Source: a bacterium
GTDB taxonomy: Bacteria > Patescibacteriota > Minisyncoccia > UBA6257 > JAGOQP01
Direction: 5' to 3'
Length of the DNA stretch: 64,000 bases
NCBI GenBank assembly: GCA_021814695.1
Contig: JAKAHY010000004.1
Coordinates: forward strand, 24,481 to 88,480
In this document: one piece after another, positions 13,888 through 30,293 of the stretch
Layout: the number at the start of each line of letters is the position of its first letter
Position numbering within the stretch: the stretch's first letter is position 1
Position numbers and translations under genes: made by a program
Notes under the pieces: generated by a model
Databases searched by the model: none
The model's input: the letters and a program-made list of their open reading frames with translations, nothing else
What the model was told of the DNA's origin: nothing

Positions 13888-14652
13888 ATGCCAAGACGAT
13901 TAGGCCAGCATTTTTTGAGGAATGAGAATGTTTTGGAGAGCATAGCTGAGGCTCTCAAAATAAAAAACGGCGATTCAGTTATCGAAATTGGTCCGGGTCA
14001 CGGAGAGTTGACCAGATTTTTAATAGGCAGAGGAGCGATGGTTTTTGCAATTGAGAAAGATAAAGATCTTGTAACAAAAATAAGATCATCGGATATAGGG
14101 CAAAAAATTAAATTGATAGATGGGGATGCTTTACGATCAATTCCCAAAATAACCGAGACTCCCCCTTTATCTGTTGTTGATTATAAAATTGTGGGAAATA
14201 TTCCTTACTATATAACGGGCCATTTGATGAGAATCATCGGAGAATTGAAACATAAACCATCTGAAACAGTCCTGCTTATTCAAAAAGAGGTTGCTCAAAG
14301 AATTTGTTCTCAAGCACCCAATTCAAGCCTCCTTTCCCTAAGCGTCGGTTTTTGGTCAAATCCAAAAATTATTTCGAACGTTCCAAGAGAGGATTTTTTG
14401 CCACCACCCAAAGTTGATTCAGCGGTGATAAAAATGGACACCAAAAAAGAAATTTTGGAAATATGCAGTGAAAAATACTATGAATTTATAAAAAAAGCCT
14501 TCAAACAACCCAGAAAGACGCTCCTTAATAATCTAATATCAAGCGGGTTAAGCAGAGAAGATTCTTTAAATATAATCAAATCACTCGGATTAGGGGTCAA
14601 TTCCCGTCCTCAGGAGTTGGAATGCTCAAAAATAACAGCTATTTTGTGTTGA
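13888..14652 (+). CDS. rsmA: 16S rRNA (adenine1518/1519-N6)-dimethyltransferase
   Basis: 254 aa. GQHFL at the N-terminus and the SAM-binding VIEIGPGHGELT identify the KsgA/RsmA family. Confidence 0.85.
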   Translation: MPRRLGQHFLRNENVLESIAEALKIKNGDSVIEIGPGHGELTRFLIGRGAMVFAIEKDKDLVTKIRSSDIGQKIKLIDGDALRSIPKITETPPLSVVDYKIVGNIPYYITGHLMRIIGELKHKPSETVLLIQKEVAQRICSQAPNSSLLSLSVGFWSNPKIISNVPREDFLPPPKVDSAVIKMDTKKEILEICSEKYYEFIKKAFKQPRKTLLNNLISSGLSREDSLNIIKSLGLGVNSRPQELECSKITAILC

Positions 14653-15515: not shown

Positions 15516-16778
15516 ATGTCTAACCGAAAACCATTATTTTTTTTCACGCTGATTTTGTTTTCGGCATTATTTTTAGAGACTTCAATGGGCCAAGTCTTGC
15601 CGCTTAGTGGGGCCGATCTGAATTCTCTGACAAGTGGTCCGGATCTTAGTATTGGCCAAAAAAGTGGCTTAGTGTCTACTCTTCAAACTTTTCTTTCTCG
15701 GCAGGGAAAGGTTATCTATCCTGAGCAAATCGTGTCCGGTTATTTTGGTATTCTCACAAGATCAGCACTGTCTCGTTTTCAAAAAGAAAACGGGATTGCT
15801 CCGGCTCTGGGGTATTTTGGTCCGATAACAAAAAAATATCTCGCTTCTCATATAAGCTTATATTTATTAAACACCACAAACCAATCATCTTCTTCAAGCT
15901 CTCTTAATCAGTCATCGACCTCAAGCATTACTCCTCAGCCAGTTTTACAAATTACATCTTCAACGACCGTTCCCTCAATAGATTCCGGAATTAATGTTTT
16001 GGTTTCGGATAATGGAATAAACTCCAATGTTGATTATGCCAATATGCTGATCGATATTTCTAAAAATATTAAACTAACGGACGAAGATTTAAATAACACA
16101 AAAAAAATTAATTCAATTCCCTTGGCGTTGCCGGGATTGATGGATTGGGCGATATCAAAAAAACAGATTACAGACCAGGATCTAAAAAACACAGCAATCT
16201 TTTGGGAAAAGATAACCAACCAAACCCAATTAGCATTGGAACAAAAGACCGTTTCTCCGGCAATGGAATCTTATCACAAGACGATGATAGGTTGGTTTAA
16301 ATATAACTATCAAGTCGCGACAAAGATGGAATCCCTAAAAATATCCGATCCGTCACTCCAGTCTTTATTGGATCAATACAAATTAACGTATCAAAAATAT
16401 GGGCCTGCTTTGAATAAAAAACTCCAACTTTCCGATATGGAAAAAATTCAGGTTGGGATAGGCTGGAGATCATTTTTATCTGATTTGGGCATATTTAAAG
16501 TTGCTCAAGCGGCGGGTGGTATACCATTTGGAGGAATAATAACCATATCGGACATATGTTTGACGGGAGAATTATTAGTCGTATCTGCTCCGGCTCCAGG
16601 AGCCTTCTTCCTTTATTGGCCAATATATTTTACGAATCCATTTCTATATAACGCGGTTATAACCGGAAATTGGATATTGGGCGAAGCTCTGCCCGGTCCG
16701 GGAATTTGCAGTAAAACATTAATCAATTATACGGAAGGGGAAGGGGTCATCCTCTACTTTGGCACTGGATTACAGTAG
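15516..16778 (+). CDS. Secreted protein with a putative peptidoglycan-binding domain
   Basis: 420 aa with a signal peptide. Residues ~50-110 (LVSTLQTFLSRQGKVIYPEQIVSGYFGILTRSALSRFQKENGIAPALGYFGPITKKYL) fit the PG_binding_1 pattern. A Ser-rich linker and a C-terminal domain of unknown function follow. Confidence 0.5.
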   Translation: MSNRKPLFFFTLILFSALFLETSMGQVLPLSGADLNSLTSGPDLSIGQKSGLVSTLQTFLSRQGKVIYPEQIVSGYFGILTRSALSRFQKENGIAPALGYFGPITKKYLASHISLYLLNTTNQSSSSSSLNQSSTSSITPQPVLQITSSTTVPSIDSGINVLVSDNGINSNVDYANMLIDISKNIKLTDEDLNNTKKINSIPLALPGLMDWAISKKQITDQDLKNTAIFWEKITNQTQLALEQKTVSPAMESYHKTMIGWFKYNYQVATKMESLKISDPSLQSLLDQYKLTYQKYGPALNKKLQLSDMEKIQVGIGWRSFLSDLGIFKVAQAAGGIPFGGIITISDICLTGELLVVSAPAPGAFFLYWPIYFTNPFLYNAVITGNWILGEALPGPGICSKTLINYTEGEGVILYFGTGLQ

Positions 16779-16801: not shown

Positions 16802-18295
16802 ATGACAGGTTTAATAAGAAAACTGGCGACGAAGGCATTGATATTTTTCGTAATCTTAGGATTAGTCACCATATCTCTTCCGGGATTGGTTTATCCAAAA
16901 CAAATTAATGCTCAAGGCGTTCCGGTCAACGATCTTCCGGCAGAGGGTAATTTAGGCACTCAAACAAGTTTGGGTTTTTGGCAGAAGGTGCAAAAATATT
17001 GGGAATTATACGTTCGTCCTGCCCTGAGGGATATGGCAGCAAAAAGATTAACGGACTATATTACTCAACAAACATTGGATTGGATAAACAACGGAACACA
17101 GCCGACATTTGTCGGAAATTGGAGCCAGCTCACCAAAGATGCTGGTAACATAGCCTTTGATAGTGTCAATAATTATTTAAAAACTGATGGTGTTGATTTG
17201 TGTTCTCCATTCGTTCCTCAAATACAAATAATGTTGCAAGGAACATTTATGCAGTCTCAGCCCATTAGTTGTAGTATAGATAATTTTTTGACAAACATAT
17301 CCAATTCTACCGACATGCTCAAACGAGGCGACTGGCTGACTTATTCTCAGGCTATTATGCCGGAAAATAACCCGATGGGATTATATCTAATTTCCGAAAA
17401 TAGAATTTATAGCGAATATTTGAGCCAACAAACAGCGCGCGTGAATGAAGCTGTTGCATCCAGCGGATTTTTGGGGACGAAAACTTGCACTAGCTATGGT
17501 AGTTACGGGTCGGTTGATGAGATACAAACAATGTGTAAAGACTCTGGTCACAAAAACGATCCTATTTGTAGTAGTAACCCATCAGTTAATACAGCTTGTC
17601 AACAGTGGGAGGTTCAGACCCCCGGAGATGTTGCCGGAAAAGCGGTTGCTAATGCGATTACCTCCGATACATTGTGGAGCGCCAATATACAGAATTTTAC
17701 CTCAGCTGTTATAAATGCTTTGGTATCAAAAGTTTTCCAAAAGGGGCTTGCGTCTCTTCAGTCGTCAAGCATAAATACGGATAGTGACCTTGCTCAAGGA
17801 GCCGATCCAAATGTGATTGCTAATTTTAACAGTGTGTCACGGGATTGGCTGAATACTTACGACGACACCATTTATTATCTGAATTCGACGGACTATCCGA
17901 CACTTCAAACATGGCTAGATGTTCAGTCTTTGGCTCAGCAAGGAATTTCGTCTTGTTCTTCAACGACCGAATGGCAACAGGAATATAATAACGTAACCAC
18001 TATTGTCAATGTGCTGCAAAATATGACTAATGCAGCAAATGAGGGAATAACAAATATAAACCAAGTCGATCCGGCAGCTCTCTCATCCGCCGAATTATCT
18101 CAGCAGATTACTCTATTAAGTTCCGACTTTTCTAATTTTTCCAGCACTTACGGGATTCTTCTTGACGAGATAAGTAGTGCCAAATCAAGTGGAAGTATGA
18201 CGCGAACGCAAACTGTTGGTCTTCAGGAAAAGAATTCCTTAACTACCGATTTGAGTCCCGCACCGGCTTGTATTTCTCCACTAACTTCACAATAA
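16802..18295 (+). CDS. Hypothetical Cys-containing secreted protein
   Basis: 497 aa with an N-terminal signal/TM segment and multiple Cys in the mature part. No recognisable catalytic motif. Confidence 0.45.
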   Translation: MTGLIRKLATKALIFFVILGLVTISLPGLVYPKQINAQGVPVNDLPAEGNLGTQTSLGFWQKVQKYWELYVRPALRDMAAKRLTDYITQQTLDWINNGTQPTFVGNWSQLTKDAGNIAFDSVNNYLKTDGVDLCSPFVPQIQIMLQGTFMQSQPISCSIDNFLTNISNSTDMLKRGDWLTYSQAIMPENNPMGLYLISENRIYSEYLSQQTARVNEAVASSGFLGTKTCTSYGSYGSVDEIQTMCKDSGHKNDPICSSNPSVNTACQQWEVQTPGDVAGKAVANAITSDTLWSANIQNFTSAVINALVSKVFQKGLASLQSSSINTDSDLAQGADPNVIANFNSVSRDWLNTYDDTIYYLNSTDYPTLQTWLDVQSLAQQGISSCSSTTEWQQEYNNVTTIVNVLQNMTNAANEGITNINQVDPAALSSAELSQQITLLSSDFSNFSSTYGILLDEISSAKSSGSMTRTQTVGLQEKNSLTTDLSPAPACISPLTSQ

Positions 18296-18296
18296 G

Positions 18297-20894
18297 TTGA
18301 TTTCAATGAATATTTTTTCGATTAAATCTAAACTAACTGCCGCAATATTTTTGATGATATTTGCGGTCTTGTTGTTTGTGGCACCGGCTAAATTGAACTT
18401 TGTGGGCTCATCTACGATTTCCGTTAATCAAGTATATGCGCAACAGACACAGGCCACCCAGGCTCAGCCGAATGCATCTGCTAAAGATCTATTAAGTTTA
18501 ACGCCCGTGGGACAAGCGGGGCTTGTTGTTGAGGCAATTCTTTATTTTATTCAAGCGGTATTGTATTTATTAATATCCATTACTGGTTTGTTATTTGGTG
18601 TTGCAGTTCAATTTAACTTGGATCTTTTGCAACCAGCTAATAATGTGGCGGTTTCGGTGGGGTGGGACATATTCCGCGTTATCACAAATTTGGGTTTCGT
18701 TTTGGGGATTATAATCATTGCCATAGGTACTATAGTTCGCAGCCGTTCGTATAGGGCTCAGCAGATACTCTGGCGTTTGATAGTGGCAGCTCTTCTGGTC
18801 AATTTCAGCTTAGTGATAGCAGGCGGAATCTTGCAAGTTAGCGATTCTCTAACTGGATATTTTTTGTCATCTCTGACAGGAACACAACAATATGATTTTG
18901 CCGGAGTAAATGTTCCACTCAACAGTCCCAATAATATGATAGTTGGAACTCTTGTAGCTGAGGTAACCGGATTCTTTAGGTTGCCAAATGTAGTTGTTCC
19001 ACAAGATAGTTCGGGCTGGTTTAATTCGTCGTTTCTAAAAGTTGCTAATGTAATTAGTCATGTGACGTTAGGGCCAACAATCCTTGAATTATTTTCTTTA
19101 GTCCTTACCGTTGTTGTGTTTCTCATCGTCTTTCTTACGCTGCTAGTTTTGTCTTTGCAGGTTTTTGTGCGTTATTTCTTTATAACCGTGCTTTTGATTG
19201 TTTCTCCAATAGTATGGCTGATGTGGATATTTCCATTCGGACAACGATGGTGGAGAGAATGGTGGAACCATTTTATTAAGTGGGCTTTTATGTTGCCTTT
19301 AAACCTGTTCTTTTTGTGGCTAGCTATAGCCCAACTTCAAGGGGTTATTTATGGGACTATGACAAAAAAAGTCACAAACCTCATGTCTTCCATGCAATAT
19401 GTCATTGGAGGGAATGTTGATTTTGGTTCAATTATGGGTTCGCTAATGGCCGTTGGTTTCATAATTTTAGGAATGAAGTTGTCACATAAACTTGGTATAG
19501 CTGCTGCAGATGGAGGAATAAAGATTGCTCAAAATGCTGGAAATAAAATTAAGGAAAAAGCCGCCAGAGGTGCTGGTGCCGGATTTGCGAGGGTTGGCGG
19601 TGGAGTAGCTGCAGAAACCATCGGTGCAAAGATGTCCACTTGGGCTGGTGCAAGAAAGGGGGCGGTAACGGGTTGGGTTGCCAGAGAAACCGTTGGCCGT
19701 GCGGGAAAGGGATTGATAGGTGTTGGCGCAACGGCGGAGAAAAGAAAGGCGGAACCTGTTTTTGGTAGGCCCCCCGAAGATTTTCTAAAAGAATACTCTC
19801 AGTGGACTCCTGATAGGCTAATTAAAGCGTATGCTGGCGCACCTCGAGAGCAACAGCTCGCGATTTTAATGACGCTAGAATCAAAAAAGAAGCTCACTGC
19901 TGAAAATGTAGAAAAACTTGGAGGAACAGAGGCTCTTTTGAATCAAGCTGATTATCTTGAAGGGGGCGGCAGAAAGCCGATTGCAGATAATATTAAAATC
20001 GCAATAGGAGATGATAGGACAACATATAATGCAAGAAAGGCGATTGATGCTATATCAGACCAGGTTGAAGAACGAAACGTTACCAAAGACGAATTAGTCG
20101 CGCTTGAATCTCGCCGTGCCAATCTTGAAGAACAATCCAAAACTTCACAGAATGAAATTGATAACGCTAATAAAGAACTCGAAGATGCTAGGGCAAAGGG
20201 TGATTTGAAGAGAGGGGGCGAAATTCAGGATAAAATTAGTGCTAGCAAAAAAGTTCTTGAGAGTGCAAAATCTGAAATTTCAACTATTAATTCACAGATT
20301 CAGCCCCTAAAAACAAAACTTGAACCTCTCGAAGCTGTTGTTGGACCACGCGAAAAGGAGCTTAATAACGCTAGAGCAAGTTTCAATTCCAAATTCAAGA
20401 AGCCAGAAGAACAGAAAAGGATTAACGAAGCAATATTCTCCAAGGAAGAGGAATTTGAGCAGGGCGAAGATGGCAAAGAGGGGAAGAGCAATCTTACCGC
20501 AGGTCAAAAACTTGATAGGATTGCTCAAGCTGAATTTATTAACTCAGAGCCGACTGGCCGCAGGCTACACGATGTTATTCCTTCAATGAACACTGACTCA
20601 AAATTAGAGGGGCTTATGAGGTCATTGGTTTTATCGGCGACTAAACAAAATCGGTTAACTGGAGATTTAAAAACTGCTTTTGATGGGGCTTTTAGAGGTA
20701 GTGGCAGCGTTAAAGATCTTATATACACAATGAAAAAATATGGAGTTCGTGATCAACGTCTTTTCAAGAGACTTGAAAAGCAGATTGACAGAACTATCGC
20801 TGGCGATTTGGGATTTTCTGAGAGTGGCACCAATAAAGAAAAGGAAAATGAGTCGAGTAAGGACGATGGTGGAAAGTCGGAGGAGAAAAAATAA
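18297..20894 (+). CDS. VirB6/TrbL-like polytopic membrane protein with a long coiled-coil/Gly-Ala-rich C-terminal extension
   Basis: 865 aa. After a signal peptide there are about 6-8 hydrophobic helices across residues ~60-400. The C-terminus is hydrophilic, with a G/A-rich segment (GAGAGFARVGGGVAAETIGAK...) and a K/E-rich coiled coil. The assignment rests on topology and context only. Confidence 0.4.
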   Translation: MISMNIFSIKSKLTAAIFLMIFAVLLFVAPAKLNFVGSSTISVNQVYAQQTQATQAQPNASAKDLLSLTPVGQAGLVVEAILYFIQAVLYLLISITGLLFGVAVQFNLDLLQPANNVAVSVGWDIFRVITNLGFVLGIIIIAIGTIVRSRSYRAQQILWRLIVAALLVNFSLVIAGGILQVSDSLTGYFLSSLTGTQQYDFAGVNVPLNSPNNMIVGTLVAEVTGFFRLPNVVVPQDSSGWFNSSFLKVANVISHVTLGPTILELFSLVLTVVVFLIVFLTLLVLSLQVFVRYFFITVLLIVSPIVWLMWIFPFGQRWWREWWNHFIKWAFMLPLNLFFLWLAIAQLQGVIYGTMTKKVTNLMSSMQYVIGGNVDFGSIMGSLMAVGFIILGMKLSHKLGIAAADGGIKIAQNAGNKIKEKAARGAGAGFARVGGGVAAETIGAKMSTWAGARKGAVTGWVARETVGRAGKGLIGVGATAEKRKAEPVFGRPPEDFLKEYSQWTPDRLIKAYAGAPREQQLAILMTLESKKKLTAENVEKLGGTEALLNQADYLEGGGRKPIADNIKIAIGDDRTTYNARKAIDAISDQVEERNVTKDELVALESRRANLEEQSKTSQNEIDNANKELEDARAKGDLKRGGEIQDKISASKKVLESAKSEISTINSQIQPLKTKLEPLEAVVGPREKELNNARASFNSKFKKPEEQKRINEAIFSKEEEFEQGEDGKEGKSNLTAGQKLDRIAQAEFINSEPTGRRLHDVIPSMNTDSKLEGLMRSLVLSATKQNRLTGDLKTAFDGAFRGSGSVKDLIYTMKKYGVRDQRLFKRLEKQIDRTIAGDLGFSESGTNKEKENESSKDDGGKSEEKK

Positions 20895-20908: not shown

Positions 20909-21967
20909 ATGTATCAACCAACACGGCAACAAGTTATCACGCAATGGGAGCAGATGCCGGACATTCTTCGTGAAGCAATGCACTCTTCCCTTACTATAGA
21001 CGAAATTGATAACATTCAGACAAATTTTCATCTATCAGATGATAAAAGTAATACATTGGCCCGATTGATACGCGGCGTATTTTATGGGCTCATACACACA
21101 GAGGATTTATATAAAGAAATCAAGGACTCTCTTCAAATTGATCCGCGGTTAGCATTGGATATTTATCACGAAGTAGATAAAAAAATATTTGAGTCATTCA
21201 GGAAAGAGATAGAAGATAATTTTATAAGATCTAAAATTGGGGCCATAAAAGAATCGGAGGTGCCAAAGCCAAAATCCGTTCCTGCTCAAGTTGTCTTAAA
21301 AGAAGGTCCTGAAGTTATTAATCTTAAGCCCGAATCTGCAGTTTCCGAAACCCCAACAAAGTTGAAAGTTGAGGGTGTTCAAAAACCGTCAGAACCGGCT
21401 CCAATGCCCATCGGTCAAATTAATATAAAACCTGAGCCGATTACTGTTATTTCTTCGGCAAGTCCCAAGCCCCAATTTTCACCGATTGCTCAACAATCGA
21501 AACCTCCGGTTGCGCCAGTCACTCCTTGGCAAAAACCGGATGTTCCATCACAACCAAAAGCTGAGCCTGTTGGAGCCACCGAAGGTCCGATGATTATCCA
21601 TCAAAAAGAAGAGTCAATATCGGTATCTCAAACTCAAGCTGCCAGTCCTTTTAGGCAGAATTCTTTCGGAGGTTACATGGGATCGTTTAGGTCATTTTCC
21701 GGCCAGGCGCCACAAGCTCCGGTGTCTTCGGCAAAAATAGAAATGCCTTCCGGACAGAAGCCGGTTTCGGGCCAAACCGAACAAAAGATTCCGGTGGTGA
21801 TAAAAAAATATGAAGAAGAGCCGGCAAAAACAATTCATTATAGCGAACTAAAAACTCCGGTTACGCCCAAGAAAGAAAGTATGCCGCAGACTTCTGCGCC
21901 TGTCGTTGCCAAAAAACAGCCACCTGAGGGGATGGTTAATCTGTCCGATCTTACGTTCAGGAAATAG
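20909..21967 (+). CDS. Hypothetical proline-rich protein
   Basis: 352 aa. An N-terminal helical region is followed by a long P/S/Q-rich, likely disordered, segment. No TM helix. Confidence 0.4.
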   Translation: MYQPTRQQVITQWEQMPDILREAMHSSLTIDEIDNIQTNFHLSDDKSNTLARLIRGVFYGLIHTEDLYKEIKDSLQIDPRLALDIYHEVDKKIFESFRKEIEDNFIRSKIGAIKESEVPKPKSVPAQVVLKEGPEVINLKPESAVSETPTKLKVEGVQKPSEPAPMPIGQINIKPEPITVISSASPKPQFSPIAQQSKPPVAPVTPWQKPDVPSQPKAEPVGATEGPMIIHQKEESISVSQTQAASPFRQNSFGGYMGSFRSFSGQAPQAPVSSAKIEMPSGQKPVSGQTEQKIPVVIKKYEEEPAKTIHYSELKTPVTPKKESMPQTSAPVVAKKQPPEGMVNLSDLTFRK

Positions 21968-22548: not shown

Positions 22549-23244
22549 TTGAAGATAAGGTGGTGTATACTTATAAATAATATGGCCGAAACAACAATCG
22601 CTCCGAATTCAACCCAGCAATTTGTAGATATTGAGGAAATCAAGGACGGTATCGTCCACCTTAAAGGCGGCGGATTGCGGTCCGTTATTATGGTTGCGGG
22701 AGTAAATTTTGAACTGAAATCGGAAGAAGAGCAGGACATAATCACCGCCGGATATCAGGATTTTTTGAATTCACTGGACTTTCCCCTGCAGATAGTTATT
22801 CACTCACGGAAATTAAGCATAGATAAATATCTAAAGTCGGTTCAAGAAAGGCGCGATCAGGAGCCGAGCGAACTTTTGCGTAATCAAATTGACGAATACA
22901 CGGAATTTGTTAAAGGTTTTGTCAAAGAAAACGAGATAATGACCAAGACTTTTTTTGTGGCGGTTCCTTATGAAGGAGGGGGTGCGGCATCAATCAAAAA
23001 AGGAGTCTTAGGATTTTTTGGAGGGAATAAAAAGAAAAATGCCAAAAAAGAAAAGGAAGAAAGCTTTGAACAACAATTAACCCAGCTTCGCCAGCGAATC
23101 GACCAGGTTTTGGGAGGACTTGAAAGAATCGGTTTGCGCGCGGTGGTGTTAAATGACGACGAGCTGACCGAGCTTTATTACAATTTATACAATCCTGAAA
23201 CAGTCGAGAAAAAAATTCCCAAAGAAGCAGGTATAAAACAATAA
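22549..23244 (+). CDS. VirB4-family N-terminal domain, encoded as an ORF separate from the ATPase
   Basis: 231 aa. The segment DGIVHLKGGGLRSVIMVAGVNFELKSEEEQDIITAGYQDFLNSLDFPLQIVIHSRKL resembles the N-terminal region of Gram-positive-type VirB4/TraE proteins. Its TAA stop is 2 nt before the downstream ATPase ORF, which is in a different frame. Confidence 0.5.
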   Translation: MKIRWCILINNMAETTIAPNSTQQFVDIEEIKDGIVHLKGGGLRSVIMVAGVNFELKSEEEQDIITAGYQDFLNSLDFPLQIVIHSRKLSIDKYLKSVQERRDQEPSELLRNQIDEYTEFVKGFVKENEIMTKTFFVAVPYEGGGAASIKKGVLGFFGGNKKKNAKKEKEESFEQQLTQLRQRIDQVLGGLERIGLRAVVLNDDELTELYYNLYNPETVEKKIPKEAGIKQ

Positions 23245-23246
23245 AT

Positions 23247-25004
23247 ATGGCGGAACAGATTAAAATAGTAAAACCATATACCGGAGGCGAAGCATCCGAT
23301 GTGCGAAATCTTATTGCACCCTCGGCGGTAGAGGTAGACCAAAATTACGTCAAAATCGGCAATAAATATGCCAAGACTCTCTTTGTATTTTCTTATCCTA
23401 GATTTCTTTCCGGGGGATGGTTTTCGCCAATCATAAATCTGGCAAAACTTTTTGATATTTCTATTTTTGTCCATCCTGTAGATACTGCCTTGGCATTGCG
23501 AAGCTTAAGGAAAAAAGCCGCTCAAATTGAAGCCGAAATCGGCGAAAAGCAATCCAAAGGTTTTGTGCGTGACCCGATGCTTGAGACTGCCTTTGCTGAT
23601 ATTGAATCTCTGCGTGATAATCTTCAGCAGGCGCGCGAAAGGCTTTTTGATGCAGCGGTTTACGTTACTTTTTACGCCGACACCGTCGAAAAGCTGAATG
23701 AATTGGAAGAAATAATTACCAATATTTTCGAAAGTAAAATTATCTATGTGAAACCGGCTACCTTCCAACAAATGGAGGGTTATGTGTCCACGCTGCCTTT
23801 GGCCGAAGACAAACTCGATATACAAACACCGCTGAACTCCGGTCCAATTTCTTCTTTTTTCCCGTTTGTTTCTATGGACCTGACTTCCGATACGGGAATT
23901 TTATACGGAATAAATCAGCACAATAACACTCTCGTAATCTTTGATAGGTTTTCTTTGGAGAATGCCCACCAGGTGGTGTTTGCAAAATCCGGTTCCGGAA
24001 AATCATACGCCACAAAACTTGAAATTCTGCGCACGCTGATGATGGGCACAAAAGTTATGGTTATTGATCCGGAGCAGGAATACAAAAACCTGAGCGATAC
24101 GGTTGGTGGAACATACTTTAAGATTTCTCTGACTTCCGACCAGCACATAAACCCGTTTGATATTCCGGTAATACCTCAAGGCGAAGATCCGGCCGATGTT
24201 TTTAAATCTCATATCTTAACTCTGACGGGACTGCTTAAAATAATGCTCGGAGATATTAGCGTGGAAGAAGAGGGTCTTTTGGACAGGGCGCTTACCGAAA
24301 CTTATGCATCGCGGGATATCATTCCGACAAACCCAAAATTTTTGGAAATTGAACCGCCACTACTTTCGGATTTGGAAACCGTTTTGAGAAATATGGAAGG
24401 AGGCAGACCGATGGCCGAACGTTTGTATAAATTTACCCAGGGGACTTATTCCGGATTTGTGAACCAGAAAACCAATATAGATATGAGCAATCGGCTGATA
24501 GTGTTTTCCATCCGCGATTTGGAAGAGGAGCTCAGACCGGTGGCTATGTATGTTATTTTGAATTTTATCTGGAATACGGTCAAAGCTAAACTTGAAAGAC
24601 GCATTTTGGTTATTGATGAAGCATGGGTAATGATGAAATATCCGGAAGGGGCTTCGTTTTTGTTCGCTTTAGCCAAGAGAGGGCGCAAGTATTATCTTGG
24701 TATCACTACAATTACCCAAGAAGTGGACGATTTCTTGAATTCTCCTTATGGGAAGCCTATTGTTTCCAACTCTTCATTGCAGCTTTTGTTAAAACAATCG
24801 CCAACCAGCATAGATACGATTGCCAAAGCATTTAATTTAACCGATGCCGAAAAGAATCTTCTACTTGAAGCGGGAATCGGTCAGGGACTATTCTTCGCCG
24901 GACTTAAGCATGTTGCAATCCAAGTAGTGGCATCTTATTTTGAAGATAAGATAGTTACGACAAAGCCGCAGCAGCTTTTGGATGAAGGCGGATCTCTTTT
25001 GTAA
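23247..25004 (+). CDS. VirB4/TrbE/CagE-family type IV secretion ATPase, core and C-terminal part
   Basis: 585 aa. It has Walker A FAKSGSGKSYATK, Walker B RILVIDEAWVMM (the DEAW motif typical of VirB4) and an N-terminal YAKTLFVFSYPRFLSGGWFSPI. The combined length with the upstream ORF is about 816 aa. Confidence 0.8.
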   Translation: MAEQIKIVKPYTGGEASDVRNLIAPSAVEVDQNYVKIGNKYAKTLFVFSYPRFLSGGWFSPIINLAKLFDISIFVHPVDTALALRSLRKKAAQIEAEIGEKQSKGFVRDPMLETAFADIESLRDNLQQARERLFDAAVYVTFYADTVEKLNELEEIITNIFESKIIYVKPATFQQMEGYVSTLPLAEDKLDIQTPLNSGPISSFFPFVSMDLTSDTGILYGINQHNNTLVIFDRFSLENAHQVVFAKSGSGKSYATKLEILRTLMMGTKVMVIDPEQEYKNLSDTVGGTYFKISLTSDQHINPFDIPVIPQGEDPADVFKSHILTLTGLLKIMLGDISVEEEGLLDRALTETYASRDIIPTNPKFLEIEPPLLSDLETVLRNMEGGRPMAERLYKFTQGTYSGFVNQKTNIDMSNRLIVFSIRDLEEELRPVAMYVILNFIWNTVKAKLERRILVIDEAWVMMKYPEGASFLFALAKRGRKYYLGITTITQEVDDFLNSPYGKPIVSNSSLQLLLKQSPTSIDTIAKAFNLTDAEKNLLLEAGIGQGLFFAGLKHVAIQVVASYFEDKIVTTKPQQLLDEGGSLL

Positions 25005-25006
25005 TA

Positions 25007-25825
25007 TTGCTGCTGGCTTTAACAGTTATGAATAACGACCAGCTAAAACTTACCGATTTTTTTGACCCGATTGTACAACTTGCCATCGGGTTGGCGGTTG
25101 CGGGCGATATTCTTTTTATAGTGCTGCCTTTACGTTATATATTCGCCGTTATTATCGGCATAGTTCTTTGGCAGGGAATGAAAGGATTTTTAACAAAATT
25201 CGTTTTTATTATTTGTCTTGTTCTGCCTTTACCGCTGATGACGATAGGAACTATATTGGGGATTATTCTTTCGAACGGAGTGGTAAGAATGATAGCTACT
25301 CAGGTTGCAATACAAGCCTTATCGGTTGCTACCGTAGGGGGAGCCGAAGTTCTTGAAGTTGGTGCTGTGGCGGAGACGGCTGCCGCCGGAGCGGAAGCGG
25401 TTGCCGGTACGGCAGCTGCAGCAGCCGAAGCGGGAGCAGTTGGGGCCGAGGCCGCCGCTGCCGGAGCTGAGGTTGCCGGTACTGCGGCTGAGGCTGGTGT
25501 TGGTGCGGTAGAAGAAGCAGCCGGAGCCATACCTAAGCCAGTGGGGCCTTCGGCACAGCCCCCGGAAATGCCGGGACCTCAAGCCCAGCCGGAAGAAGCC
25601 AAAAAACCATCCCTTAAAGAAAGGGCTAAAGGCAAAGTTGTTGAAAAAATAAAAGAAAAGCTTGCTGAAGATATCGCTGAAGAAGGAGGGCCAAGCGACG
25701 AAAATGAGAACGAAGAAGAATCCAATATAATTCAAGGAGAATTCGGAAATCCGGACATCAGTGATTTAGAAAGCCAAGAACAAGAAGAGGATGAGAATAT
25801 TGTTGATTTGAGGAAAGCAGCTTAA
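25007..25825 (+). CDS. Hypothetical polytopic membrane protein with an Ala/Gly/Glu-rich repeat region and an acidic tail
   Basis: 272 aa with 3-4 N-terminal TM helices. The region A(E/G)A(V/A)AGTAAAAAEAGAVGAEAAAAGAEVAG is encoded by a local GC-rich imperfect repeat (~25320-25520). The C-terminus is E/D-rich. Confidence 0.4.
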   Translation: MLLALTVMNNDQLKLTDFFDPIVQLAIGLAVAGDILFIVLPLRYIFAVIIGIVLWQGMKGFLTKFVFIICLVLPLPLMTIGTILGIILSNGVVRMIATQVAIQALSVATVGGAEVLEVGAVAETAAAGAEAVAGTAAAAAEAGAVGAEAAAAGAEVAGTAAEAGVGAVEEAAGAIPKPVGPSAQPPEMPGPQAQPEEAKKPSLKERAKGKVVEKIKEKLAEDIAEEGGPSDENENEEESNIIQGEFGNPDISDLESQEQEEDENIVDLRKAA

Positions 25826-25861: not shown

Positions 25862-26578
25862 ATGAACCGTTTGCTAAAAATCTCGGTAATATTTGTCTTT
25901 TCTATTATAATCGTGGCATTTGGCGTTAACTACGCTCAAGCGGCAGACCCGCAATTTTTGGTTTCGTGGAAAGCCGATACAAGCGCTCCACAATCATATA
26001 TGGGAAAAATTATGCCGGTAAGCGGATCTACTATAACCATTTCCTTTGAACTTATAGGCACAACCGGTAATCAGGCTGGAAAAGTTTTAGATCTGACAAA
26101 TAGCAATGTCCGTTGGTATATTAACGGGAATCTCCTTTCTCAGGGGAAGAATGAAAAGACATTTTCATTTATTACGGCAGACAATAATGATACCGAAACG
26201 GATTTAAAGATTTCGGCCGAGTACGCCGATCCGGTTGCCGGTTACAGTTATTTTGTGGATAAATACGTTACAATCCCCTTATCACATCCTCAAGTGGTAA
26301 TAAATCAAAATAAAATAAGCAGCTCCATTGCTGTCGGTTCGGGAACTCAATTGTTTGCATTGCCGTATTTTTTCAATGCTCTTATAAAAAATTTAAGCAT
26401 ACAATGGGTGGCTAACGGCCAAAATATTCCTATTGATCCTAAAGATCCATGGAATCTCAGCGTCAATATAGGTTCAAATTATATTTCCGGATCACAGGTG
26501 ACTATTTCGGCGGTTGTTCAGAGCATTTTTGATTCTTCGATTCAGGCACAAAAAAATCTCATTATTACGGTTCAATAA
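25862..26578 (+). CDS. Hypothetical secreted beta-rich protein
   Basis: 238 aa with a signal peptide (…NYAQA/ADP). The composition is that of a beta-strand-rich protein. Confidence 0.4.
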   Translation: MNRLLKISVIFVFSIIIVAFGVNYAQAADPQFLVSWKADTSAPQSYMGKIMPVSGSTITISFELIGTTGNQAGKVLDLTNSNVRWYINGNLLSQGKNEKTFSFITADNNDTETDLKISAEYADPVAGYSYFVDKYVTIPLSHPQVVINQNKISSSIAVGSGTQLFALPYFFNALIKNLSIQWVANGQNIPIDPKDPWNLSVNIGSNYISGSQVTISAVVQSIFDSSIQAQKNLIITVQ

Positions 26579-26579
26579 T

Positions 26580-27452
26580 ATGAAAAAATTTATTCGAAAA
26601 ACAATTTTATTGGCGGCTCTCATTTTTGTGATTGGGGGGATTTATAACTTTGTTTTTGCCACTAATGTCACGTTGGAATACCCCGCATTTACTCGAGCTC
26701 CGAGTCCTGCCGACATGGTGGGCCAGATTTATACCTATGCTTTAAGTATCGCAGGTGCGCTTGCAATTATTCGTGTCGTATATGGCGGAATAGTCTATAT
26801 AATAAGTGCCGGCAATACATCAAAACAATCCGATGCCCGGGATATTATTACCAGCGCTATCTGGGGATTGGTGCTTTTGGCCGGATCTTATCTTCTTTTA
26901 AATACCATCAATCCGGAAATAGTTCAGCTTAAAAATCCGAATCTTACTCCATCTGCTTTAATAAAAGGCACAGGGGGTCAAATTGGAGTTGTCCCAAGCG
27001 GAGGGTTTGGTGGCATCAGCGAGCAGTCGGCCCGTACCGAACTGACCGCCGGTTTAGTGCAGGTAAAACCCCAATGTTCTCCGGGACAAACTGCCTGCGC
27101 CACTCTTGATAATATCCAACAATCAACCGTGGATGAATTACTTGCATTAAAACAGTATTGCGATGCTCAGGAAGGCAGCTCTTGTAAAGTTTTGGTAAAT
27201 GAAGGAACTGGAGGTTCTCACAGCGAGACCGGAACGCTTACTCACGCCAACGGGTATAAAGCCGATTTAAATTACACCCCCAGTGATCCCCTGACATCAT
27301 ATATAGAAAGCTGGAACAAAGTCGGTCCGGCAAGTGTTCCTGCGGAGATACAAAAAGGCTGCTCAACTTATAGTTGTTATCAAAGTCCGACCGGAGCAAT
27401 TTATATGCTTGAGGGAGATCATTGGGACGTTACCGTTCCACCTAAAAAATAA
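26580..27452 (+). CDS. VirB2/TrbC-like pilin fused to a Cys-rich C-terminal domain
   Basis: I restarted the track ORF at ATG 26580 (MKKFIRKTILLAALIFVIGGIYNFVFA, a signal peptide). Two hydrophobic helices (IYTYALSIAGALAIIRVVYGGIVYIISAG and AIWGLVLLAGSYLLL) are separated by a short charged loop, which is the T4SS pilin topology. A ~170-aa extension with 6 Cys follows. Confidence 0.45.
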   Translation: MKKFIRKTILLAALIFVIGGIYNFVFATNVTLEYPAFTRAPSPADMVGQIYTYALSIAGALAIIRVVYGGIVYIISAGNTSKQSDARDIITSAIWGLVLLAGSYLLLNTINPEIVQLKNPNLTPSALIKGTGGQIGVVPSGGFGGISEQSARTELTAGLVQVKPQCSPGQTACATLDNIQQSTVDELLALKQYCDAQEGSSCKVLVNEGTGGSHSETGTLTHANGYKADLNYTPSDPLTSYIESWNKVGPASVPAEIQKGCSTYSCYQSPTGAIYMLEGDHWDVTVPPKK

Positions 27453-27455
27453 AAA

Positions 27456-28661
27456 ATGAAGCGAACCGCAATAATTATTATAGTAGTCATTATCGCCGTG
27501 GCAGTTGCTGTCGGGGTTTATTTAGGATATCAGAAATCAAAAAGTGTTATTTCTCTAACCGGTTCGACGCAACAAGGAGCTTTGCCTATAGGCACTAGCA
27601 ATGGAGAGGCGGCCGGTAGCACAAATCAGGGGGGCGCGGCATCGGCAGAAAATATTTCATCCACAAGCACCGAAGAAGCCGGCTATTTTCAGGACCAAAA
27701 ACAGAGACTGTCGATTCTGACAACTCAGCCGGTCATGGGTTATTGGATGACAGTGCCTAAAATTGCCTCAACTACGCCACAGATATTTTATCTTGACCAG
27801 AAAGGAGAAGTTGTAGAGATTGACCAGACGGGCAAGGAAAATGTTGTTTCTAATTCAAATTTGGGAATTCCCGTGCGAAGCCTTCAGAATATAGACGGAT
27901 CAAAGGTGATAGTCCTATTTGATTCGGGAATACTGGCTATTTTTGACACTGCCTCAAAGGTTTGGCAATCATTGGATTCGTCAATATCTTCATTTGTCTT
28001 TTCGCCCGATGGGAAAAGCATCGCTTATGTAAAACCCAATGGCGCCAGAAATTCCATATATACTCAGAATATTTCTACAACCAAGAAGAATTTAACGCTC
28101 GTAGCGACACTTAACATACAGGATTTTTCTATCGCCTGGCCTTCTGTTAGCACGATAATTCTTGTTCCTAAGCCGGCAAACCAGTTTTATGGTCAAGCGT
28201 GGTATCTGAATTTAAAAAATAATACTCTTAATTCTTTGGGGTTTGGTAATGGGCTTGATTATGTTTTTTCTCAGAAAGCCAATTATGGAATTCAATTCAT
28301 TTCAACCGACAGAAGCAAAATTTCGGTTTCCATAATTAATGACTCCGGAAAAAAACTTGCCGACATGCCATTTTCTTCCATAGCAGCTAAATGCTCGTTT
28401 GCCCAAGACGCGATAGCGGCTTATTGTGCCATACCGGTATCATATACGGGCGGTGCTGTTACTCTTCCGGATGATTATTTAAAGAAAGCGACATTTAGTA
28501 ACGACTCTATTTATAAAATAGACTTATCTTCATCCCAACTCACAAAAATTGTGGATTCGGGTACGGCCTTAATTGATGCGACCGATATAAGAGCGGCAAG
28601 CTCGACTTTGCTCTTTGTAAATCGTCTTGATGGCATGTTATATAGATTTAATATGCAGTAA
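27456..28661 (+). CDS. Membrane-anchored protein with beta-propeller (TolB/PD40-like) repeats
   Basis: 401 aa with an N-terminal TM segment. It contains repeated motifs such as FSPDGKSIAYV. Confidence 0.45.
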   Translation: MKRTAIIIIVVIIAVAVAVGVYLGYQKSKSVISLTGSTQQGALPIGTSNGEAAGSTNQGGAASAENISSTSTEEAGYFQDQKQRLSILTTQPVMGYWMTVPKIASTTPQIFYLDQKGEVVEIDQTGKENVVSNSNLGIPVRSLQNIDGSKVIVLFDSGILAIFDTASKVWQSLDSSISSFVFSPDGKSIAYVKPNGARNSIYTQNISTTKKNLTLVATLNIQDFSIAWPSVSTIILVPKPANQFYGQAWYLNLKNNTLNSLGFGNGLDYVFSQKANYGIQFISTDRSKISVSIINDSGKKLADMPFSSIAAKCSFAQDAIAAYCAIPVSYTGGAVTLPDDYLKKATFSNDSIYKIDLSSSQLTKIVDSGTALIDATDIRAASSTLLFVNRLDGMLYRFNMQ

Positions 28662-28663
28662 TT

Positions 28664-29998
28664 ATGGCCGCAAACATTTCATCAAAACCAGGAGTCTCCA
28701 AGTATCTTTCACAGCCAGAATTTCGTCCGGTTTATTATCTATCGCCGCTTTTAATAATTGTGCTGATAGTGTCTTTCCTTTATGTGCCCGCAAGCCTTGT
28801 ATTGATTCCGGTTTTGGCGGTTGTCGCTGTTCTGGTGCTGATGGTGGCCTTAAGTTGGCGCCTTTCCAAAGCTAATATTAATGTCAAAACGGAAACACAG
28901 CAGGTACAAAGCATAATAGCTCATCTTAATATTGGAGTGGTTGCTTATGATAACGACTTTAAAGTTCTGATTTTCAATCCGGCCGCTGAAGAAATATTTG
29001 CACTTAATCGTGGAGATATAGTGGGACAAAAATTATCGGCCGCTATGGCCAGTGATCCGAAATTTAAAGTGCTTGCACAAGTCGTCTTTTCTTCTCTGGC
29101 ACCGACGGTTATCAAGCGTTCTGACCCGGGAGTTTATCCTCAAATTATTGACGTCTCATTTGATGAACCGATGCTTGAGTTGAGGGTTGTGACTGACAAG
29201 ATCTTTGACGAGAAAGGCGCCGTGAGCGGGTTTGTTAAGCTTATTACCAACAGAACGCGCGAGATAGAGTTGTTAAAATCAAAAACAGAATTTATTACCG
29301 TTGCCGCTCACCAGTTGCGCACTCCGCTGACCGCCATCAACTGGGCGTTGGAAAGTTTGGAAGGCAGCCAATTACAACCTCAACAGAAAGAATTGGCCGA
29401 CACCGGATTTTTAGCCGCCAAAAAAATGCTTAAAACAGTCAACGACTTATTGGACGTGGCAAAAATCGAAGAAGGGCGTTTTGGATATCAATTTGAAGAA
29501 GTTAATGTGGTCTCATATCTGGAAGATATACTTTCCCAGTCGAATGATATCGCCAAGCAATACAACATAAAACTTTATTTTCAAAGACCAAAGGAGTCTT
29601 CTATCTCGGTATATATCGATCAGCAAAAGATGAGTATGGTTCTTTTTAATCTCATAGACAACGCCATCAAATATAATGTCGAAAACGGTTCGGTGACCGT
29701 ATCTGTCGAGAAAGTAAATAACGAACCATACGTAAAGATAACAATCAAAGATACGGGAATCGGCATTCCGGCAAACCAGATGGACAAATTATTTACTAAA
29801 TTTTTCCGAGCCGACAACGTTGTTAAGTTTTCCCCGGACGGTACGGGGATGGGCTTATATATAGTCAAAAATATTGTTACGCGCCATGGTGGGAAAATTT
29901 GGGTTGAGTCGGAATTAAATCGTGGGACGACTTTCTACTTTACGGTACCGACCAGCAAAGACATGATACCCAAAAAAGAACTGGTTGAATTTGAATGA
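28664..29998 (+). CDS. Membrane-bound sensor histidine kinase (PAS-HisKA-HATPase)
   Basis: 444 aa with two N-terminal TM helices. The H-box AAHQLRTPLTAI, N-box NLIDNAIKYN, G1 DTGIGIP and G2 GTGMGLYIV are all present. No response regulator is adjacent. Confidence 0.85.
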   Translation: MAANISSKPGVSKYLSQPEFRPVYYLSPLLIIVLIVSFLYVPASLVLIPVLAVVAVLVLMVALSWRLSKANINVKTETQQVQSIIAHLNIGVVAYDNDFKVLIFNPAAEEIFALNRGDIVGQKLSAAMASDPKFKVLAQVVFSSLAPTVIKRSDPGVYPQIIDVSFDEPMLELRVVTDKIFDEKGAVSGFVKLITNRTREIELLKSKTEFITVAAHQLRTPLTAINWALESLEGSQLQPQQKELADTGFLAAKKMLKTVNDLLDVAKIEEGRFGYQFEEVNVVSYLEDILSQSNDIAKQYNIKLYFQRPKESSISVYIDQQKMSMVLFNLIDNAIKYNVENGSVTVSVEKVNNEPYVKITIKDTGIGIPANQMDKLFTKFFRADNVVKFSPDGTGMGLYIVKNIVTRHGGKIWVESELNRGTTFYFTVPTSKDMIPKKELVEFE

Positions 29999-30061: not shown

Positions 30062-30274
30062 GTGCATGGAGATAGCATGCTGACTATGACGTCGAAAGAA
30101 AGGAAAATTGTCAGGTCTTTATTGGCTTTAGCCGGTGGAAACTCAGATATTGTTTTTTCGGCGCTTACCGAAAGCTCCAAAAGAAATGGGGGAAATCCCA
30201 GAATGGAAGAGGTTCAAAAGCTTATAAAAGAATACTTGTCAGGAAGGCCACTTGATCACTTATTTCGTTGCTAA
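30062..30274 (+). CDS. Hypothetical small protein (70 aa)
   Basis: A stand-alone ORF with its own extended -10 (30042-30049) and a downstream terminator. No recognisable motifs. Confidence 0.4.
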   Translation: MHGDSMLTMTSKERKIVRSLLALAGGNSDIVFSALTESSKRNGGNPRMEEVQKLIKEYLSGRPLDHLFRC

Positions 30275-30293
30275 CCGCATTAGCGGTTTTTTT
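30273..30293 (+). terminator. Rho-independent terminator
   Basis: Stem AACCGC / GCGGTT with loop ATTA, followed by a T-run (TTTTTTTG). Confidence 0.55.

Follow-up and report, generated by a model that had tools for sequence, protein, structure and literature searches.

A window of 64,000 nucleotides from a Patescibacteria genome (GenBank assembly GCA_021814695.1, contig JAKAHY010000004.1, positions 24,481 to 88,480 of the forward strand; "the window" means this whole stretch, and coordinates are counted from its first letter) carries a type IV secretion system (T4SS) gene cluster with a gene for a two-part protein at 26580-27452 on the + strand. The N-terminal part of this 290-amino-acid (aa) protein is a VirB2-type T4SS pilin, and the C-terminal part is, by predicted fold and motif, a LAS-like domain that lies outside all curated M15 families. 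We suggest that the protein is a pilin-tethered peptidoglycan peptidase that gives the T4SS its wall-breaching, VirB1-type function, a reading to which we give a probability of roughly 0.55. Both parts are of known kinds; what is new is their combination, its abundance and an unannotated domain family. The features of the protein are the following, where pLDDT denotes the predicted local distance difference test score of AlphaFold2.

26580-26660, + strand: leader or signal peptide, residues 1-27, with MKKFIRK, a hydrophobic helix and V-F-A/T (from hydropathy and the AlphaFold2 helix at residues 2-26)
26706-26909, + strand: VirB2-type pilin hairpin, helix 43-75, loop SAGNTSKQSDAR and helix 80-110 (from PF18895, AlphaFold2 and the VirB2 profile match)
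26928-27005, + strand: flexible Gly/Pro/Ser-rich linker, residues 117-142, about 26 residues (pLDDT below 50)
27006-27449, + strand: predicted C-terminal LAS-like (Hedgehog-N / peptidase M15A-like) domain, residues 143-290 (from AlphaFold2 and Foldseek)
27075-27187, + strand: probable disulfide pairs C166-C173 and C194-C202 (from co-occurrence in 150 homologues)
27219-27266, + strand: motif 1, H214 ... H222-A-N-G225-Y-K227-A-D229, containing H-x6-D (from conservation in 150 homologues)
27360-27377, + strand: third Cys pair, C261-C266, in a subfamily insertion
27411-27428, + strand: motif 2, E278-G-D-H281-W282-D283 (from conservation in 150 homologues)

The open reading frame (ORF) runs from an ATG at 26580, one base behind the TAA of the upstream gene, to a stop codon at 27450-27452; a longer reading of the same ORF would start from a TTG at 26514. 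The ORF is real and not due to chance, because Pfam family PF18895 matches it above the cut-off, a word-indexed protein search returned 27 homologues of the 290-aa protein, and 398 cluster representatives match its C-terminal domain. Among the proteins in public collections, P0176 (290 aa) is identical and P0001 is a 274-aa version. An earlier reading of the gene from its letters and translation, here called the sequence-only reading, had described a leader, two hydrophobic helices separated by a short charged loop and a long six-cysteine extension. All the peptide strings that it quoted occur in the translated ORF, the protein has exactly six cysteines (residues 166, 173, 194, 202, 261 and 266), and the leader and the helices are borne out by hydropathy and AlphaFold2. 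Three hydrophobic stretches are found (Kyte-Doolittle, 19-residue windows starting at about residues 3-14, 46-60 and 88-92), and AlphaFold2 places helices at residues 2-26, 43-75 and 80-110, the last two being separated by the short loop. A small residue at position -1 of the putative leader cleavage site is mostly kept in the alignment of homologues, and cleavage probably occurs near VFA/T. About 180 residues follow helix 2 of the hairpin: residues 117-142 are disordered, and residues 143-290 form a compact domain of 148 residues with a pLDDT of 95.3 and a predicted template modelling (TM) score of 0.90 in AlphaFold2, which was given an alignment of 48 homologues. The extension past the pilin helices that had been noticed is therefore real and folded in the model, and it is predicted to lie outside the cell.

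The assignment of the N-terminal part to the VirB2/TrbC-type pilins, also proposed in the sequence-only reading, holds. Pfam T4SS_pilin PF18895 matches residues 48-103 with 28.3 bits against a curated cut-off of 26.6, and among 150 representatives that have the C-terminal domain, PF18895 is found in 109 and TrbC/VirB2 PF04956 in 19 (128 in total). When a profile of 24 pilin modules was compared with the sequences in PDB, the best hit was Agrobacterium tumefaciens VirB2 (T-pilus, 8cue and 8exh; E = 0.0019) with both helices covered, followed by unrelated membrane proteins at E = 0.08. The VirB4 gene of the T4SS cluster lies 1.6 kb upstream, and the annotation "pilin [Candidatus Paceibacterota bacterium]" is given to a 285-aa relative that shares 50% identity with the window protein. 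No pilin was among the Foldseek matches of the full-length model, and phmmer of the whole protein against the PDB sequences gave noise only (ribosomal S6 and membrane proteins, E > 0.1). Neither a single transmembrane (TM) helix nor an assignment of the N-terminal part to an unrelated membrane protein family was found.

The C-terminal domain has no match in Pfam, NCBIfam, PHROGs or the PDB sequences, and its likely nature was suggested by structure comparison. In the Foldseek search with the full-length model, the helical N-terminus diluted the signal, and histidine-kinase helices were among the matches; the search was repeated with the domain alone. All PDB matches of the domain with a probability of at least 0.6 are Hedgehog N-domains (Shh, Ihh and Dhh), with probabilities up to 0.97, TM scores of 0.43-0.49 and E-values from 0.02. 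The bacterial LAS peptidases MepA and VldE are in the same list at low probability (0.10-0.38), and the remainder is low-probability noise. The top viral match is a Microviridae "Sonic hedgehog-like" protein (E = 3.6e-5, probability 1.0, TM score 0.50), and phage "Peptidase M15A, C-terminal" proteins come next. The LAS / Hedgehog-DD-peptidase fold class is defined by the zinc motifs H-x6-D plus H-x-H (PMC6027127). Because these Foldseek matches all belong to this class and the conservation within the family fits it, we file the domain as LAS-like. With tblastn, the domain matched no phage sequence and one Streptomyces plasmid, where the match is annotated "hypothetical protein".

Conservation was counted among 150 homologues that are about 25-60% identical to the query. 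In motif 1, H222, G225, K227 and D229 are each present in 150/150 and H214 in 148/150; in motif 2, H281 and D283 are present in 150/150, E278 in 147/150 and W282 in 146/150. The first metal motif of the LAS class, H-x6-D or H-x3-D, is thus found as H-x6-D (H222 and D229) in every homologue, with G225 at +3 as in Shh, and hhalign puts H222 and D229 on the Zn-binding His and Asp of human Shh (LHYEGRAVD). The probable metal ligands are H222, D229 and H281 (or D283), and E278 would be the base. The pilin P0013, which is encoded at the syntenic position of another locus (L002, 10001-10900), has a different tail with the canonical SLHYQGRAADF ... HIH, and this tail weakly matches Peptidase_M15_3 (PF08291) and HH_signal (PF01085) in Pfam (E = 0.088 each). 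As judged from its motifs, P0013 is a bridge sequence to the canonical LAS motifs. A database search with the P0013 tail alone returned nothing, P0013 itself included.

The cysteines are a less constant feature than this putative metal site. C166 and C173 are both present in 86 of the homologues, both absent from 61 and mixed in 3; for C194 and C202 the respective numbers are 129, 18 and 3; and Cys occurs at both positions of C261/C266 in only 2. Because cysteines co-occur in this pattern, three local disulfides and an extracytoplasmic location would fit. The conservation counts show that the cysteines are apparently accessory to the domain and that the pairs would be dispensable. The sequence-only reading had described a Cys-rich, probably disulfide-bonded domain. 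Cysteines do not define the domain: six cysteines as its defining feature are ruled out by two pairs being jointly absent from many homologues and the third occurring in 2/150.

The combination of pilin and domain, which had been called unusual, is found in hundreds of clusters within Patescibacteria. With the C-terminal domain alone as query, at least 398 cluster representatives (50% identity) were matched at E ≤ 1e-3. The pilin module is present in 140 of the 169 retrieved proteins with the domain, and the domain sits at the extreme C-terminus, with a median tail of 1.5 residues. The median linker length across the family is 27 residues (5-95% range 11-73, maximum 209). Among GTDB species genomes, 242 loci with the domain were confirmed, and locus architectures were read from the best 80 of them. 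Pilin fusions account for about 31 of these 80, and nearly all of them have the label Patescibacteria or unclassified. A strict phmmer test that used the window proteins as queries found VirB4, TrsD and PrgI within 8 kb at 15 of the approximately 31; some fusion loci are in arrays with 1-4 further pilins. About 43 of the best 80 belong to Actinomycetota (Streptomyces, Nocardioides, Actinomadura and relatives: L018, L022, L023, L027, L029, L033, L037-L039, L041-L045, L048-L051, L053, L054, L056-L061, L063, L065-L075, L077-L082), where the domain forms a secreted protein by itself. These stand-alone proteins are about 160-190 aa long, consist of a signal peptide and the domain, often end in CGGC or CGC, and are annotated "hypothetical protein" or, in UniRef, occasionally "Peptidoglycan-binding protein". 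That the domain is common to Patescibacteria and Actinomycetota, the latter including hosts of Saccharibacteria, might reflect gene transfer. Other Patescibacteria pilins (P0018-P0026) have C-terminal extensions of 150-300 residues without a Pfam domain, and P0022-P0024 among them are extremely Cys-rich; pilins with large C-terminal domains of no recognised family seem to be common in Patescibacteria.

Other architectures connect the domain with the cell wall. P0123 combines T4SS_pilin, an SLT lytic transglycosylase (E = 1e-20) and the LAS-like domain; P0162 and P0163 combine PASTA with the LAS-like domain; and P0027 has T4SS_pilin with NlpC/P60. Wall-hydrolase modules of at least three folds are thus attached to the same pilin module (P0123, P0027 and the LAS-like fusions). 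In a metagenome-assembled genome (MAG) of Anaerolineaceae (L025:3694-4563, CAYHSI010000124.1), the LAS-like domain is C-terminal to an N-terminal WXG100 domain (E = 4e-12), a layout like that of type VII secretion system (T7SS) effectors. In a MAG labelled Candidatus Pacearchaeota (L020:1779-9662, JAPLXX010000059.1), a 2,628-aa ORF has the LAS-like domain at residues 2026-2164, with a pretoxin-HINT domain (Pfam, E = 1e-11) immediately behind it and then a C-terminal region of about 300 aa. From these architectures it can be seen that the LAS-like domain serves as a wall-active module that is secreted or delivered. The substrate is probably a peptide bond of peptidoglycan, as the associations with SLT, PASTA, NlpC/P60 on the pilin, WXG100 and PT-HINT, together with the stand-alone secreted form in Actinomycetota, suggest.

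The gene lies in a tightly packed, single-strand cluster in which the genes for PrgI, TrsD and VirB4 are 1.6-4.7 kb upstream of the pilin fusion. The neighbouring features are the following.

13888-14652: KsgA
15516-16778: secreted protein of 420 aa at the head of the cluster, with PG_binding_1 at residues 52-105 and no recognised catalytic domain (Pfam)
16802-18295, 18297-20894 and 20909-21967: genes of 497, 865 and 352 aa without a significant family match, their positions kept in the loci L001 and L002
21906-22538, + strand: PrgI family (VirB3-like) T4SS membrane protein (PF12666, 27.9 bits against a cut-off of 27; kept in the syntenic loci)
22549-23244, + strand: TrsD-like protein of 231 aa related to the N-terminal part of VirB4 (NCBIfam TrsD NF041427, E = 1.7e-6, and VirB4 N-terminal matches)
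23247-25004, + strand: VirB4-family T4SS ATPase of 585 aa (NCBIfam conju_CD1110, 373.7 bits against a cut-off of 325; Pfam P-loop_TraG, E = 8.5e-29)
25007-25825, + strand: polytopic membrane protein, possibly VirB6/TrbL-like (weak NCBIfam TrbL match, E = 2.1e-5, far below the cut-off; position kept in L001 and L002)
25862-26578, + strand: secreted protein of 238 aa directly upstream of the pilin, with faint Ig-like matches (syntenic genes of 240 aa and 224 aa in L001 and L002)
27456-28661, + strand: membrane-anchored protein of 401 aa directly downstream, with faint beta-propeller/TolB-like matches (syntenic genes of 404 aa and 416 aa in L001 and L002)
28664-29998: histidine kinase

The same gene order surrounds pilins that are only 38-46% identical (L001 and L002). 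A chromosomal MPF_FATA-like T4SS with a TrsD gene and a ksgA neighbourhood has been published for Patescibacteria, and the cluster in the window agrees with it (PMC12102498); the core genes nearby are KsgA, Fpg, RuvA, a Mur ligase and ribosomal protein S20. The genes at 22549-23244 and 23247-25004 might be taken for a split VirB4, a reading that is replaced by a TrsD-like gene plus VirB4, the pair described for Patescibacteria; the counterparts of the TrsD-like gene in L001 and L002 are called TraC-like/VirB4_TrbE_N. The C-terminal half of the polytopic membrane protein is a long Ala/Glu/Gly-rich tract of low complexity (AAAGAEAVAGTAAAAAEAG...). The best terminator-like hairpin of the region, at 30273-30288 (AACCGC-ATTA-GCGGTT, followed by a T-run), lies just past the histidine kinase gene, and the whole T4SS cluster through the kinase may therefore be one transcription unit. 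The promoter scan gave no signal above background, and no RNA family was found by Rfam within the window.

No recognisable VirB1 gene is seen in the cluster, as its scanned ORFs have no SLT, CHAP or NlpC domain in Pfam. In a survey of 3,035 genomes, VirB1 was missing from most Patescibacteria genomes with VirB2 (PMC12102498). Because of these two absences, we propose that the pilin fusion takes the place of VirB1. The leader would direct insertion by Sec, and the two-helix hairpin would reside in the membrane, its basic loop facing the cytoplasm and its two ends the outside. VirB2 and TraA have this same topology, with the loop cytoplasmic and both termini outside. The enzyme domain, with up to three disulfides, would then be held in the wall zone beside the VirB4/PrgI/TrsD machine, where the putative metal site described above, with E278 acting as the general base, could hydrolyse bonds of the stem peptides or the cross-links. 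The cell's own wall would be opened for the T4SS, and the domain would thereby supply the VirB1-type function in a cluster without a recognisable gene for it. If the pilin polymerised, the enzyme would also be carried on the filament surface toward a partner cell.

Several observations weigh against this proposal. The fold matches are marginal in absolute terms, with TM scores of 0.45-0.50 and PDB E-values of 0.02-0.1. With hmmsearch, a profile built from 48 domain sequences had no PDB match at E ≤ 10, and hmmscan of the 48 sequences against Pfam at the same threshold gave scattered single matches, with M15 and HH_signal not among them. The hhalign comparisons were made with single sequences (human ShhN and the P0013 tail) at probabilities of 2-4%, and serve for residue correspondence, not for homology. 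The classical second LAS motif, H-x-H, is absent from the family, in which E278-x2-H281-W-D283 stands in its place, and the invariant K227 has no nameable counterpart. The PG_binding_1 protein at 15516-16778 could be another wall-active component, and the five cluster proteins without an assignable function (497, 865, 352, 238 and 401 aa) could hide a wall hydrolase. Moreover, Patescibacteria T4SS have so far not been observed to form a pilus (PMC12857230).

The same enzyme could instead be a host-directed weapon, with a peptidase-coated T4SS pilus cutting the peptidoglycan of a host or partner for attachment, effector delivery or nutrient uptake, and with remodelling of the cell's own wall being secondary. 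This explanation overlaps with that of a peptidase opening the producer's wall and differs only in the target. The presence of the domain in a WXG100 protein and beside pretoxin-HINT in a giant surface protein, both typical layouts of polymorphic toxins, speaks for it, as does the secretion of the domain as a free protein by Actinomycetota, including known hosts of Saccharibacteria. In solved VirB2 and TraA pili, the C-terminus is on the outer surface, so that the domain would face outward, and the variation of the linkers from 11 to more than 200 residues also counts in favour of this reading. Hidden Markov models built from the family detect this gene as the sole pilin gene and the sole copy of the C-terminal domain in the 64-kb window, and the T4SS and its pilins are essential for the epibiotic growth of Southlakia epibionticum. 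On the other hand, there is no sign that these pilins polymerise, and a 16-kDa domain on every subunit would crowd the filament surface by a rough estimate from F-pilus geometry. Several genomes have the fusion as one of 2-5 pilin genes, so that it may be a minor pilin or one that does not polymerise. No immunity gene was identified, and hosts are known for few Paceibacteria. We therefore regard a weapon against the host as a tentative alternative. A broader version, in which patescibacterial T4SS pili in general are enzymatically armed filaments, with all subunits or a dedicated subset carrying a tethered peptidase (SLT or NlpC/P60 in relatives) and digesting through the host wall, seems rather unlikely to us; if true, it would account for the need of epibiotic growth for the T4SS and its pilins in spite of missing relaxase and coupling proteins, and for the usual absence of VirB1.

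An adhesin is improbable. The sequence-only reading had suggested a pilin-adhesin fusion, and the domain could be a non-catalytic pseudo-peptidase that grips stem peptides of peptidoglycan or another surface ligand and thereby mediates contact between cells. The best structural matches are Hedgehog N-domains, in which the zinc site is widely used for ligand binding rather than for proven catalysis, H-x-H is altered to H-W-D, some UniRef entries call the Streptomyces homologues "Peptidoglycan-binding protein", and a tethered domain that is predicted to be extracellular and disulfide-stabilised would suit such a role. However, Foldseek matched no lectin or adhesin fold but LAS/M15A/Hedgehog-N zinc peptidase folds, and the domain has an invariant metal-site-like motif. 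The putative ligand and base residues H214, H222, D229, E278, H281 and D283 are kept in 147-150 of 150 diverse sequences, as expected of a working active site, and the domain is joined with wall-cutting or wall-binding modules (SLT and PASTA) and occurs in toxin-like proteins.

We likewise see little chance that the pilin-like hairpin is a mere membrane anchor, outside any T4SS or pilus, of a housekeeping carboxy- or endopeptidase for growth and division, for which the location of the chromosomal cluster among core genes, the lack of VirB4 within 8 kb at about half of the GTDB fusion loci in the strict test and the Actinomycetota homologues without a T4SS link can be cited, since the anchor is specifically a VirB2-type pilin and not a generic TM helix in the 140 proteins mentioned above, the gene stays inside the PrgI-TrsD-VirB4 cluster in the window and in distant relatives, and the independent attachment of NlpC/P60 and SLT to this pilin module suggests a functional connection with the T4SS. 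Both the adhesin and the housekeeping enzyme are less likely than a pilin-tethered peptidase with a VirB1-type function.

A pilin family with a built-in domain resembling a peptidoglycan peptidase offers a testable answer to how the T4SS crosses the wall, and possibly to how it affects the host. Few machines have been shown to be indispensable to Patescibacteria as epibionts; the T4SS is one of them, and its role has been called completely unknown (PMC11665869). Published accounts describe arrays of pilins, including the essential pilin array of S. epibionticum (PMC10633639), and not the fusion, while a structure-universe preprint remarks on the abundance of PF18895. Neither the pilin-peptidase fusion nor the C-terminal domain is mentioned in the literature searched, where absence is not proof of absence elsewhere; this literature comprised the Patescibacteria T4SS survey, a T4SS review from 2025, the genetic study of S. 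epibionticum, a perspective and the preprint just named. The domain family has no Pfam or NCBIfam model, and its members are labelled "pilin" or "hypothetical protein" in the databases; it occurs in Patescibacteria, in Actinomycetota and in toxin-like proteins, and apparently adds to the LAS/Hedgehog-N fold class. Should the domain be inert or the pilin never polymerise, the finding would shrink to a new accessory domain on a known pilin.

Among known systems, the LAS zinc peptidases (M15A/M15, with the DD-carboxypeptidase of Streptomyces albus, VanX/VanY and phage M15A tail or lysis proteins; MepA of M74; and Hedgehog-N) have the Hedgehog/DD-peptidase fold to which the domain of the window protein is tentatively assigned from its model, and, as in these enzymes, the domain is predicted to be extracytoplasmic and is linked with peptidoglycan modules. 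The H-Y-E-G-R-A-V-D of Shh has the same form as H222-x2-G-x3-D229 in the window protein. E-x2-H is the arrangement of base and ligand in VanX-type M15 enzymes, and E278-x2-H281 resembles their acidic residue three positions before a conserved His. In contrast to the LAS peptidases, the domain has no profile similarity to any Pfam M15 or HH_signal model, and it has H-W-D for H-x-H, the invariant K227 and D283, extra helix and strand insertions and probable local disulfides. Polymorphic toxins and T7SS (WXG100/LXG) effectors use peptidoglycan-hydrolase modules, and the LAS-like domain follows WXG100 in L025 and adjoins PT-HINT in L020; the carrier in the window protein, however, is a T4SS pilin, and no immunity gene was identified. 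The order of a Hedgehog-N-like domain followed by Hint in L020 is the same as that in animal Hedgehog proteins, whereas in L020 it looks like a polymorphic-toxin layout.

The VirB1-type hydrolases of Gram-positive T4SS (PrgK of pCF10 and TraG of pIP501, SLT + CHAP) are encoded in the T4SS cluster and have the job proposed here, the local opening of peptidoglycan, and the pairing of SLT with the LAS-like domain in P0123 mirrors the pairing of glycosidase and peptidase in PrgK and TraG. The window protein is not homologous to VirB1: it has a predicted LAS rather than an SLT/CHAP fold, is anchored by a pilin module rather than by a single TM helix, and is at most a functional VirB1 analogue, as no lytic transglycosylase, CHAP or NlpC domain is found in it by Pfam. 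With the T4SS_pilin family PF18895 of Patescibacteria, it shares the leader, the two hydrophobic helices, the short basic loop, the VirB4/TrsD/PrgI neighbours and a chromosomal cluster near ksgA. Canonical VirB2-type pilins stop a few residues past helix 2, whereas the window protein adds 180 residues there, consisting of a tether and an enzyme-like domain.

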